64,000 nucleotides of DNA from assembly GCA_049999805.1 (NCBI GenBank), contig JBNGIO010006248.1:45900-109899 (forward strand). Reading direction: 5' to 3'. The stretch is from Folioceros fuciformis. Its lineage: Eukaryota. The position numbers and the translations under genes are program-made. Under the pieces are notes generated by a model. That model had not been told where the DNA came from and searched no databases. It saw nothing but the letters and a program-made list of their open reading frames with translations. Positions within the stretch are counted from its first letter, which is position 1. Each line of letters starts with the position of its first letter. Positions 13,611 through 17,861 of the stretch are shown in pieces.

Positions 13611-16600
13611 ATGGCTCGAAGCTTGAGGACGGGGCGGAGATGGTGGATGTTGCCAGTTCACTGCGCGCATCAGGCTTACTGGACAGGGAGGTCGGGCCTG
13701 TTGTCTGGGAGCTCTCATTCTCAGATTGTTCAGCTCAACCGATGGACGGCTATGGTTGTGAGGGCATCCCATGCAGTGGCGCAGGACACGACTCCTGTAA
13801 AGGTGAGCGCACCATTGTTGCTTGGGATTGCCAATTTTTTTTGATTCTGATGGTGGGGCTTTGGCAGCAACTGTCGAAAGTTCTGGTGGCCAATCGAGGC
13901 GAAATTGCCTGCAGATTAATGCAAACCATCAAGCGCATGGGGATGAAGACCGTGGCTGTCTACAGCGATGTCGATGTTAAGAGTCTTCATGTTCGACTTG
14001 CCGATGAAGCAGTGTGCCTGGTGAGTGTCCCACTTGGTTGTTCCTGCATGGGTGTCAGAAGTTTTTGGTTGTGGTTTGTGAGGTGGCTCCTCTGCACACC
14101 AAGGGACTGATCATGTGAAGCGGAATTCTGGCTGTTCAGGGGCCTGCACCGCCCCTCAAGAGCTACTTGAATATTGATGCGGTTATGGCTGCTGTTCGAG
14201 AGACCAAAGCTGATGCGGTCCATCCTGGGTATGGCTTTTTATCTGAAAACGCTGGGTTTGTGGAGCGGCTTGAAGAAGCTGGAGTAGTTTTTGTGGGTCC
14301 AACTGCTTCAGCAATAAGTGCTATGGGGGATAAGGCAAGTGATGAATACTGTCGGCTAGTTTTTCCTGGGTCGCATGGCTGGAGTTCTGGCAGGGCTAGT
14401 GGATCTGAAAAACAAGAGTCTGGTTTGTGTACCCAGATCAGGAGTAAGCAATTGGCGATGGACGCCGGTGTGAACACAATTCCTGGTTGTCAGGATGTCA
14501 TCACTGATGAGGACCACGCGGCAAATGTTGGTATGTGTAACATGAGAGTGTCTCACTGAGTCATGAGTAAGTGCTGCATTTTCGTTAATGTGGGTCGGGT
14601 GGGATTGCAGCTGCGGCCATTGGATATCCGGTAATGCTTAAGGCATCAGCAGGAGGTGGAGGGAAAGGCATGCGCATAGCTTGGTATGAGCACCTCTTGT
14701 CATCTTACAGCATTTGGAGTTCCCCAACTGTGACGACAAAGTACTGAACGTCACTAAAGGCTGGATGATTTTGCAGGACTGAAGTGGAAGCTCGGCAGTC
14801 ATTTCAGTTGTGTCAAGCTGAGGCATCGTCCAGCTTTGGTGATGGGCGGATCTTCATTGAAAAGTAATGATTCTGGATCCTTGCAAACCATATACGTGTT
14901 CAAGGTCGAGGCCATGTCCACTTACTAGACAGCCCAGGGTCTTGCCCTCGGCTGCAGCCAATCAGGTGTCGCATGTATGATTGTTTGAAGCCATTCCTTC
15001 TTCTAACTGGCTCTGTGTAATCAGGTTCATTGAGGACCCAAGACACATAGAGATCCAGATATTGGGAGATGCCCATGGAAATGTGGTAACAAATTTTCTC
15101 TTTTCTGCACAAGAATCTGATATCCAGCAATCTATGTTGCAGCTTGAGGTATTCAATGGTGCATGGCCTTTGCTGGCCTGTCCAGGTGTATCTTCCTGAG
15201 CGTGAGTGTTCAGTCCAGCGGAGGAACCAGAAGGTATATATGGCAGGGTTCTTCTGTGTGCAGTGTGGAGTAATATTCTGATACTCTTCGGCAATGTCTG
15301 AGGTTGAAGTCTAGGCTTGTGCAGGTTATAGAGGAGGCCCCAAGCGTAGTCCTAGATGTCGCTACAAGGGCCGCTATGGGTCAGCAGGCTGTTGCTCTGG
15401 CCAAAGTGGTTAACTATCGCTCTTCTGGTATGTGGCCTCAATGCTCTATTAACAGGTGATTTGCTCGTTTCAACTTGGCTTGTATTCGAAGGAGTTTTCC
15501 CTATTGTAGGTAAGTTATGGCATTGGCTGAAGCATCACAGGCACGGTGGAGTTTTTGGTGGACAAGCATTTGAAGTTCTACTTTCTGGAGATGAACACAC
15601 GCTTGCAAGTAATTGACGAGTTTTGTGAGATTTGAATTTTGGTTTCACGTTGACAGTCTGCTCTTCTTGGGGCCGCTGTAAGAACCCGACTCATAGATGG
15701 ACTCAAGAGGAATTATTGGTTCATTCTAGGTGGAGCACCCTGTCACTGAGTGTGTAACAGGTCTTGACCTGGTGGAGTTGATGTTGAAGGTGAGCTGCCT
15801 GATTTATGCTGTTCCATCTTCTGCACTTGTAGAAGTTCTCGTATATCAGGTTTGCCGTGGTTGTACCCGCAAGTCATATGGTAAAGGCTGACATGCACAG
15901 TCAGTCTTGTGCATCGAGTTAACTGTCATTATGGTTTCTGGCAGGTCGCTGCTGGCGAAAAGCTTCTGCTTAGCCAGGAGAGGGCCTCCGAGATTAAGGG
16001 ATGGGCTGTTGAGTCGCGTGTTTATGCAGAAGATCCAAATCGAGGCTTTTTGCCGTGAGTGGACGTTTCCTTCGTTGCTTCGTAATTTCATTTGCGGTCT
16101 CCTAAGCTCTCGATTGCGTCTTAAAATCACGTCGTGTTTTTTGGACTTGCAGCGGAAATGGGAGGTTGAGAACTTATGTTGAGCCATCTGCGCAAGAAGC
16201 CAATGAATTTGTCCGTGTCGACTCAGGCGTAGAAGAAGGAAGTGAGATAAGCATATTCTACGATCCACTCATCTCCAAGGTTCTGTTCTCTGAATCATGT
16301 AGTCTTTGGGTGTCTATGTATTTTATCTCAGAACTTTGTCTAGTAATCCCGGATTGTGTGTGCAGGTTACAACTTGGGGGCCCAATCGTGACAGTGCTTT
16401 GGCAACAATGGAGGTCAGTACTTTTTAGCGAAGTCCAGCCTCTCGACTTGTCACTTGAGTCCTTGGTTGCTGCCAGGTGAGTGCCTAACGTTGCAGTCCC
16501 TCGGCTTGTGGCAGACAGCGTTGGACAGATATGTTGTGCGAGGCTTGACTCACAACATCCCTTTCCTGCGCTCCGTCATCTCCCATCCAGTAAAACCTCA

Positions 16601-17861
16601 AGACTCTAGTCATTAATAACTCTTTGTACTCAGATGTGAGAAACTGGTGTAGTCTGAACTTAATGTGTTCTGGATGCCGTTTAATGGTGTTTAATCAACC
16701 ATGGAACGGCATTGCTGCAGGAGTTTGTTGCAGGAAACATCACAACGAAGTTCCTACAGCAGCATTATCCACATGGATGGAAGCCTTCAGAGATCAGCGA
16801 TGACCAGAAGGTAAACCCGAAGTTGATGGTGAAGTCTATGCCCTTCAAATTGCTGGATTGAATTTTGGGGAACATAGTAACTTCCTTCGTCTATGAACAT
16901 CAAGCAGGAGGAGCTTCTCTGTCTCCTAGTCCTCTTGCACATCACTAGGTACTATAATCTGGTAGTAGCCAACGATGTGCCCAGGCCGAAGGAATTGGTC
17001 ATTACTCTGGGTGGGCAAGACCATCTGATCAAGTTGATTGGTGAATCCCAACAGTCACCAGGAGCTCTTTCTCTTGTATGGACCACTACCCAAATGCTCG
17101 CCCCTCAATCTCCCATTTTGTTGCTGAAGTCTTGATTCTTCCATACAAGCGATACCAATTGGTATGCTGATGTGGGACATTGGCAGGAGTTACTTCTTGG
17201 CAGTGCTGTAAAGAAAGTGACTCTAGTAACTTCAAAGCCATGGGCCATCGAGGCCGTTATGGATGGGAAGGTGGTAACTTGCCAAGTTCTTCGACGACTT
17301 CCTCGCGGCTTCCAGATCCTTTTCTGTGGCATGGAGGTACTGGTGTTTGTAACTAGGGAATGTTGTGTTTCTTTCGGTGGAGTACACTGAAGGGGTAGAA
17401 CTTTGCAGATGGAGGTATTGGTTCAGTCAGTCCTGGAAGCTGCTCTCCAAGTACACATGCCTCCTCCTCAAGAAGAAGACTTCAGCAAGGTGACTTTGAG
17501 TGAACATCTTTCATCGGTCGTGAATTAATTTCCTGCTAAACGCTCACAGGACCCATCGGCGAATGAATCTTGCAGGTTTTAAGGTCGCCAATGCCAGGGT
17601 CCCTTATTTCTGTGTCAGTCATTGCAGGGCAACAGGTGAATGACAGACAACATGGAATCCTACTTTTCAATTTCTTTCATCCTTTGCAGGTGGCTGAACA
17701 GTTTCGATTTGCAGGTTGTGCCTGGGGACGAACTAGCTGTGATAGAGGCGATGAAGATGCGAAACGTTTTGCGAGCCGAAAACGAGGCTGTGGTTAAGAC
17801 AGTCTGCAAGTTGCCCGGTGTAACACTGGCCGCAGATGATGTGATACTGGAATATGAGTAG
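13611..17861 (+). CDS. PCCA: Propionyl-CoA carboxylase alpha subunit (biotin carboxylase + BCCP), mitochondrial-type presequence, about 21 exons
   Basis: [126 protein letters not shown] and biotin motif EAMKM; stop 17859-17861. These motifs fit PCC rather than MCC or ACC. Confidence 0.85.

Follow-up and report, generated by a model that had tools for sequence, protein, structure and literature searches.

The stretch of DNA analyzed here, 64,000 nt of contig JBNGIO010006248.1 (assembly GCA_049999805.1, Folioceros fuciformis; forward-strand positions 45,900 to 109,899) and hereafter called the window, contains on its + strand a gene for the alpha subunit of propionyl-CoA carboxylase (PCC), PCCA. 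Land plants are usually described as having neither PCC nor a use for vitamin B12. We consider it highly probable that the locus is an intact, transcribed nuclear PCCA gene of a land plant, most likely a hornwort, and that it was inherited vertically from a green-lineage ancestor. Biotin carboxylase fragments are present in all three forward frames of the locus, and exon borders were placed at GT/GC...AG sites after tblastn of four full-length relatives against the window. The resulting model, whose coordinates are exact (Table 1), comprises 21 exons with a coding sequence of 2,193 nt and encodes 730 residues without an internal stop. Its 20 introns range from 65 to 161 nt; 19 are of the GT-AG type and one is GC-AG. 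An initial annotation, made from the sequence alone, had proposed a complete gene with this start, this end, and about 21 exons, and the gene model bears out all three.

Five public runs contain all or part of the PCCA stretch. One of them, X3, carries the same organism label as the source and comes from a different sample and study; 0.42 of the sampled words are present in it, a share close to that of exons in the stretch (2,193 of 4,701 bases). A contig of 3,315 nt from this run joins the PCCA exons with 0 differing letters, and at each of the joints listed (15, with five more reported), it skips exactly the length of the matching modeled intron. X3 is only presumed to be an RNA run, and what shows transcription is that its contig is spliced. 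Since a fully spliced copy arises only from mRNA, the PCCA gene is transcribed and is spliced at the predicted borders. In run X1, which may be the source of the assembly, a DNA contig covers the stretch in unspliced form. Runs X4 and X5, from a second organism (organism B), contained 0.05 of the sampled words, and X4 aligned nothing at 90% likeness.

Pfam searches with single exons recovered, in order, Biotin_carb_N (E values of 1e-17 and 3e-21), CPSase_L_D2, Biotin_carb_C, and, on exon 21, Biotin_lipoyl (E = 2.5e-7). The arrangement in one chain of Biotin_carb_N, ATP-grasp, Biotin_carb_C, BT, and biotinyl carrier domains is as expected for PCCA. All five of the motifs on which the initial annotation had based its comparison with PCC are found in the 730-residue translation, GVNTIPG at residue 191, HPVTEC at residue 361, and the others at residues 222, 290, and 397. 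The loop GGGGKGM (residues 226 to 232) is the same string in 15 of 16 non-plant PCC-type sequences, and the biotinylation motif AMKM (residues 694 to 697), one form of the family motif (A/V)MKM, is found in all 16. Exon 1 encodes a 64-residue leader that precedes the first conserved block. The leader is rich in arginine, serine, and threonine and almost free of acidic residues (8 R+K against 1 D+E; no acidic residue comes before position 59), a composition that would fit an organellar presequence. Domain borders coincide with exon borders throughout: the putative presequence occupies exon 1, the carboxylase part exons 2 to 15, the BT region exons 16 to 19, and the carrier exons 20 and 21.

All plants have methylcrotonyl-CoA carboxylase, which uses biotin and acts in leucine breakdown. 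Whether the window gene encodes PCCA or the alpha subunit of that enzyme (MCCA) was assessed by similarity, phylogeny, and domain profiles. By BLASTP, the product of the spliced gene shows 62% identity to Riccia sorocarpa KAL3695214.1 (named propionyl-CoA carboxylase in UniRef) across 719 residues, 62% to a Klebsormidium protein and likewise to one EukProt transcript, and approximately 50 to 53% to bacterial PccA. The nearest relatives in both database searches all carry a precomputed match to PF18140 (PCC_BT). In a careful maximum-likelihood tree (39 sequences, 690 columns, LG+C20+F+G4; supports given as ultrafast bootstrap/SH-aLRT), the window protein is an ortholog of PCCA: it joins two Riccia proteins (100/99) within a streptophyte clade that includes Klebsormidium, Spirogloea, Closterium, and three further sequences (100/99), which lies in a Viridiplantae PCCA clade (100/98) and, together with named vertebrate, fungal, and oomycete PCCAs, in a eukaryotic clade (100/100). 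This grouping is split at 100/100 from seven sequences that carry PF21139 or are named geranyl-CoA carboxylase, the MCC-type sequences among them being bacterial or unnamed. A quick tree rooted on four accC sequences agrees, with an SH-aLRT support of 99 for the PCCA grouping.

The BT region, which lies between the carboxylase and carrier domains (residues 499 to 662), corresponds exactly to four exons. Against a profile of 16 non-plant PF18140 proteins it reached 76.3 bits (E = 2.7e-24), and against one of 14 PF21139 (MCC-type) proteins 6.4 bits; its assignment to the PCC type rests on these custom profiles and on the annotation of the relatives. When single exons were compared with PDB, all five matches of exon 16 were PCC alpha chains (best E = 0.0024); exon 18 returned only chance matches to urease (E = 0.17), and exon 19 returned no match. 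Among the 16 non-plant PCCAs, 179 columns do not vary; the window protein matches 172 of them, and its seven changes are conservative (I/V, A/S, I/L, R/K, S/G, and L/V). At columns that separate PCC-type from MCC-type sequences, it has the PCC residue in 24 of 28 cases. The motifs that the initial annotation had named for MCCA, GVPLVPG and ERDCSVQRRHQK, are indeed the commonest forms in 14 MCC-type sequences, all of them bacterial and none from a plant.

These data agree with the initial annotation in assigning the gene to PCCA, and the alternative that it encodes an MCCA that is merely PCCA-like is hardly credible and was rejected: although the Klebsormidium ortholog P0007 is named methylcrotonoyl-CoA carboxylase subunit alpha by both NCBI and UniRef, the window BT region scores poorly as MCC type, most of the discriminating residues are those of PCC, and the tree separates the protein with full support from geranyl-type sequences and from MCC-type sequences of bacterial or unnamed origin. 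For P0007 itself (Klebsormidium nitens GAQ88060.1), the name conflicts with both the presence of PF18140 and the position in the PCCA clade and is probably a database misnaming.

The genes around PCCA, which lie on both strands of the window, are those for a protein kinase, tryptophan synthase alpha (TrpA), SRR1, an F-box/Kelch protein, queuosine salvage (Q_salvage), an alpha-amylase with a plant-type C-terminal domain, MFAP1, an RsmH-type methyltransferase, a GH47 mannosidase, PRMT, an SLC12 transporter, and TMEM70, along with an open reading frame (ORF) with a Stress-antifung (DUF26) domain. MFAP1 was the neighbor used to place the host. It is 86% identical to P0242 (Logan) and 84% identical to P0243, the EukProt record of the hornwort Nothoceros aenigmaticus, followed by Riccia sorocarpa (79%), Marchantia paleacea (78%), Riccia fluitans (75%), Diphasiastrum (74%), Sphagnum and Physcomitrium (72%), and angiosperms (65 to 71%). 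In the MFAP1 tree, the window protein, P0242, and P0243 form a clade with an SH-aLRT support of 100 that excludes the liverworts, the mosses, the lycophyte, and the angiosperms. G+C content is approximately 50% in the genic parts of the window, and the PCCA introns are near 100 nt in length, both of which would fit a hornwort genome. On the evidence of this one neighbor gene and the PCCA tree, the window comes from a land plant, most probably a hornwort. The initial annotation had likewise placed the gene in an apparent land plant, among ordinary plant genes; the neighbors are eukaryotic, the named best matches of MFAP1 are all from land plants, and PCCA falls inside the streptophytes. It had also allowed for an alga in which PCC is already known, and MFAP1 groups instead with Nothoceros.

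In the PCCA tree, the branching order (Klebsormidium, other streptophyte algae, and then the window protein with the liverworts) is that of the species tree, which supports vertical inheritance of the gene from a green-lineage ancestor. Soil bacteria, early fungi, and green algae that live with bryophytes commonly have PCC, but contamination or recent horizontal transfer from such a source is exceedingly unlikely and was rejected in view of the spliceosomal introns, the plant genes on both sides of PCCA on one DNA contig, and the position as sister to liverworts within streptophytes that the species tree predicts.

The distribution of PCCA was surveyed in a word-seeded search whose query was the half of the Riccia protein specific to PCC, and the best 120 relatives were considered. 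Named green matches among these were Riccia sorocarpa, R. fluitans, Spirogloea (two), Klebsormidium, and Closterium (four), together with the chlorophytes Myrmecia, Botryococcus, Micractinium, and Auxenochlorella; the other named matches were from oomycetes, early-diverging fungi, and vertebrates. No moss, no vascular plant, and no Marchantia was found among the best 120, although the same database includes Marchantia paleacea, Sphagnum, Physcomitrium, Diphasiastrum, and many angiosperms. The statement in the initial annotation that angiosperms are regarded as lacking PCC is in line with this result. Angiosperms are regarded as degrading propionate via 3-hydroxypropionate, without PCC, a view for which we found no supporting citation. 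Since Marchantia, mosses, and vascular plants are missing from the best 120, loss appears to have been frequent, and the data point to repeated loss of PCCA in land plants, with the gene being kept in a hornwort-like lineage and in Riccia.

Such apparent losses could also be taken to mean that the window gene is a decaying relic, transcribed but without a working enzyme. We regard this as very unlikely and rejected pseudogene status: the reading frame is open over all 21 exons, every splice site is intact, the family-invariant residues kept include GGGGKGM and AMKM, and the window branch has a length of 0.34, comparable to that of the Riccia branch (0.28 plus 0.05 to 0.08).

Three observations concern individual relatives. 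Two Riccia species have PCCA, whereas Marchantia paleacea has none among the best 120; both genera belong to the order Marchantiales, and PCCA content may differ between them. The Riccia sorocarpa protein P0001 (775 residues) has approximately 45 residues more than that of Riccia fluitans (730 residues), inserted at the position of window intron 9, which suggests that the annotated model has retained an intron. In Closterium sp. strain Yama58-4, P0147 (1,195 residues) joins PCCA to leucine-rich-repeat domains (PF23598, PF00560, and PF13855), which reflects either a genuine fusion or two genes merged in the model.

Table 1. Features of the PCCA locus and of the rest of the window (window coordinates)
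Feature	Position	Strand	Basis
PCCA gene, start codon (ATG) to stop codon (TAG)	13611..17861	+	Gene model and spliced X3 contig
Exon 1, 64-residue N-terminal extension, putative mitochondrial presequence	13611..13802	+	Composition; no Pfam match
Exons 2-15, biotin carboxylase part (Biotin_carb_N, ATP-grasp, Biotin_carb_C)	13868..16589	+	Single-exon Pfam matches
Exons 2-8	13868-14020, 14140-14334, 14437-14530, 14611-14683, 14777-14863, 15025-15085, 15186-15233	+	
Exons 9-15	15325-15427, 15541-15608, 15730-15789, 15945-16054, 16153-16279, 16366-16413, 16515-16589	+	
Intron 3, sole GC-AG intron (donor GCAAGT), 102 nt	14335..14436	+	X3 contig also skips 102 nt
Codons of the glycine-rich ATP-binding loop GGGGKGM (residues 226-232)	14652..14672	+	
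Exons 16-19, BT region, residues 499-662, PCC type	16721-16810, 16905-17075, 17187-17336, 17409-17489	+	Profile scores
Exons 20-21, biotin carboxyl carrier domain and stop codon	17576-17635, 17715-17861	+	Biotin_lipoyl on exon 21
AAG codon, Lys696 in AMKM, expected biotin attachment site	17754..17756	+	
ATG-TAG mini upstream ORF	13533-13538	+	Read from sequence
In-frame upstream ATG, would add 23 residues	13542..13544	+	Read from sequence
95-codon ORF upstream of PCCA	13138-13422	-	No Pfam match (E up to 0.001)
MFAP1, single-exon gene	28141-29352	-	Named best matches land plants only
ORF with Stress-antifung (DUF26)	50432-50989	+	E = 7e-7
568-codon open frame	62248-63951	-	USHBP1_PDZ-bd, E = 0.005
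Assembly gaps of exactly 100 N (four)	45052-45151, 47359-47458, 52442-52541, 54027-54126		

Upstream of the modeled start codon lie a minimal upstream ORF and, directly after it, an ATG in frame with PCCA, and the true start codon may be this earlier one. A 95-codon ORF on the opposite strand lies approximately 190 nt upstream of the PCCA start; the X3 contig extends upstream past position 13400, and this ORF and PCCA may share a divergent promoter region. Elsewhere in the window, the ORF with DUF26, a domain typical of land plants, lies in an AT-rich part (G+C content of 0.34 to 0.38 at 50 to 54 kb). The four assembly gaps are all far from PCCA. The only Pfam match of the long open frame near the end of the window is weak and falls below the family cutoff.

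Comparison with known carboxylases places these features in context. Animal mitochondrial PCCA (human PCCA, PDB 7ybu and related entries; vertebrate sequences P0160, P0171, P0186, and P0197) has the same order of carboxylase, BT, and carrier domains, preceded in the window protein by a putative presequence, shares the invariant residues including GGGGKGM and AMKM, and falls in the same eukaryotic clade (100/100). Its BT region scores higher, at approximately 195 to 204 bits compared to 76 bits for the window protein, the vertebrate sequences being part of the profile. It differs also in its host, since the window gene belongs to a land plant, a group in which the downstream mutase is reported as undetected by Dorrell et al. 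(2024, PMC11439496). The nearest relatives, P0001 (KAL3695214.1) of Riccia sorocarpa and P0125 of R. fluitans, carry PF18140, are named PCC in UniRef, and are sister to the window protein. P0001 is 65% identical to the latter over 679 aligned columns, compared to 62% by BLASTP. The two lineages belong to different bryophyte phyla and are separated by a deep split (path length of approximately 0.67 to 0.70), and the Riccia names are automatic. The PF21139 group, comprising plant MCCA and the bacterial MCC and geranyl-CoA carboxylase alpha subunits, has the same carboxylase-BT-carrier layout and biotin chemistry, and its sequences share approximately 145 to 150 of the 179 PCCA-invariant columns. 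The MCC-type sequences, represented here by bacterial or unnamed ones, differ in having the other BT type and the motifs GVPLVPG, ERDCSVQRRHQK, and GHA.E.RLYAEDP. The streptophyte PCCAs have as their sister group those of the chlorophytes (Myrmecia, Botryococcus, Micractinium, Auxenochlorella, and Tetradesmus). For trebouxiophytes, the report on Picochlorum tauri (PMC12458973) describes a carboxylation pathway in which the whole B12 route is present in the genomes, whereas the window holds the alpha subunit alone.

With the animal and bacterial enzymes as a guide, we infer the targeting of the window protein, its PCCB partner, its substrate, and the fate of its product. The 64-residue leader would take PCCA into mitochondria, where biotin would be attached to Lys696 within AMKM. 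The biotin carboxylase part would then carboxylate biotin using ATP and bicarbonate, and the PCC-type BT region would dock the alpha subunit on a hexamer of the PCCB carboxyltransferase, at which the carboxyl group would be passed to propionyl-CoA to give (S)-methylmalonyl-CoA. The propionyl-CoA would be expected to come from isoleucine, valine, methionine, threonine, and odd-chain fatty acids.

Several points weigh against the reading of this locus as a land-plant PCCA gene. Substrate specificity is a property of the beta subunit and cannot be deduced from an alpha gene. The tree contains no eukaryotic or plant MCCA. Pfam PCC_BT has no match on any single BT exon (exons 16 to 19) at E values of up to 0.01, and a Pfam scan of the 163 ORFs of at least 95 residues outside PCCA found no carboxyltransferase, epimerase, or mutase gene in the window. 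No PCCA from the Nothoceros transcriptome appeared in either search for relatives; PCCA may be patchy within hornworts, or this transcriptome may be incomplete. Finally, in their survey of more than 1,600 genomes and transcriptomes, Dorrell et al. (PMC11439496) report methylmalonyl-CoA mutase (MCM) and CblA (MMAA) as undetected in all streptophytes, hornworts included, so that the canonical sink for the PCC product may be missing in this lineage.

The same survey offers a complementary observation. Hornworts are reported to keep METH, MTRR, CblC, CblD, CblJ, and the adenosyltransferase CblB (MMAB), and liverworts to retain CblB and CblJ. The presence of CblB is termed surprising and is unexplained without MCM, and the survival of adenosylcobalamin-dependent metabolism is left open; PCC is not mentioned in the survey (PMC11439496). 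Land-plant PCCA was seen only in the hornwort-like host and in Riccia liverworts, that is, in the two groups reported to have CblB, and this match in distribution suggests a link between PCCA and CblB.

In animals and some green algae, a B12-dependent route leads from propionyl-CoA to succinyl-CoA. It is conceivable, and we propose it only tentatively, that the canonical pathway has been kept in this lineage as well, with PCC, MCEE, and an adenosylcobalamin-dependent MCM that surveys have missed. In its favor are the retention of B12 genes that include CblB, with no MCM to explain it, the occurrence of land-plant PCCA in the same groups, and the precedent of trebouxiophyte green algae, in which PCC, MCEE, MUT, MMAA, and MMAB are described together (PMC12458973). 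Against this stands the failure of the survey to detect MCM and CblA in any streptophyte (PMC11439496).

PCC strongly constrained in Klebsormidium, Spirogloea, Closterium, Riccia, and the window plant, as judged from its alpha subunit, might alternatively be active without a mutase. PCC has a side activity on other short acyl-CoAs. The methylmalonyl-CoA might be detoxified by hydrolysis or decarboxylation or might enter methyl-branched lipids or polyketides, or the enzyme might act on another acyl-CoA substrate, such as acetyl-CoA to give mitochondrial malonyl-CoA. The reported absence of MCM from streptophytes (PMC11439496) favors such a use, but no enzyme for an alternative fate of methylmalonyl-CoA was identified, and in the published cases considered PCC co-occurs with MCM, both in the trebouxiophytes and in the early fungus Blastocladiella, in which the same set of PCC, MCEE, MUT, MMAA, and MMAB is reported to be expressed together (PMC1550239). 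We give similar weight to a missed mutase and to a B12-independent fate, and hold each no more than provisionally. The initial annotation had likewise offered a retained B12-linked pathway or another use of methylmalonyl-CoA.

Parts of this picture are already known: the PCC family and its chemistry are textbook knowledge, the Riccia proteins are automatically named PCC, and the chlorophyte pathway is published. We found no publication on PCC in a bryophyte or another land plant in full-text literature, in which subscription journals are mostly uncovered. The papers that pair PCC with hornwort or liverwort are unrelated, and those that pair it with bryophyte, judged from the listing, concern microbial communities.

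The finding that a land plant, most likely a hornwort, has PCCA has several implications. For sequence databases, it flags a probable error, the naming of the Klebsormidium ortholog as MCCA. For the history of the family, it suggests that PCCA was lost several times within land plants and not once at their origin. PCC acts directly upstream of the sole mitochondrial adenosylcobalamin enzyme known in eukaryotes. The 2024 survey altered the picture of B12 in hornworts, and a hornwort-like PCCA with orthologs in Riccia bears on the puzzle posed there by CblB, an enzyme that makes adenosylcobalamin without a known user (PMC11439496). A possible, still tentative interpretation is that hornworts and at least some liverworts continue to run the first step of the mitochondrial propionate pathway. 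If this is true, early land plants would have either an overlooked mutase, or a non-homologous replacement for it, or an undescribed B12-independent use of methylmalonyl-CoA.

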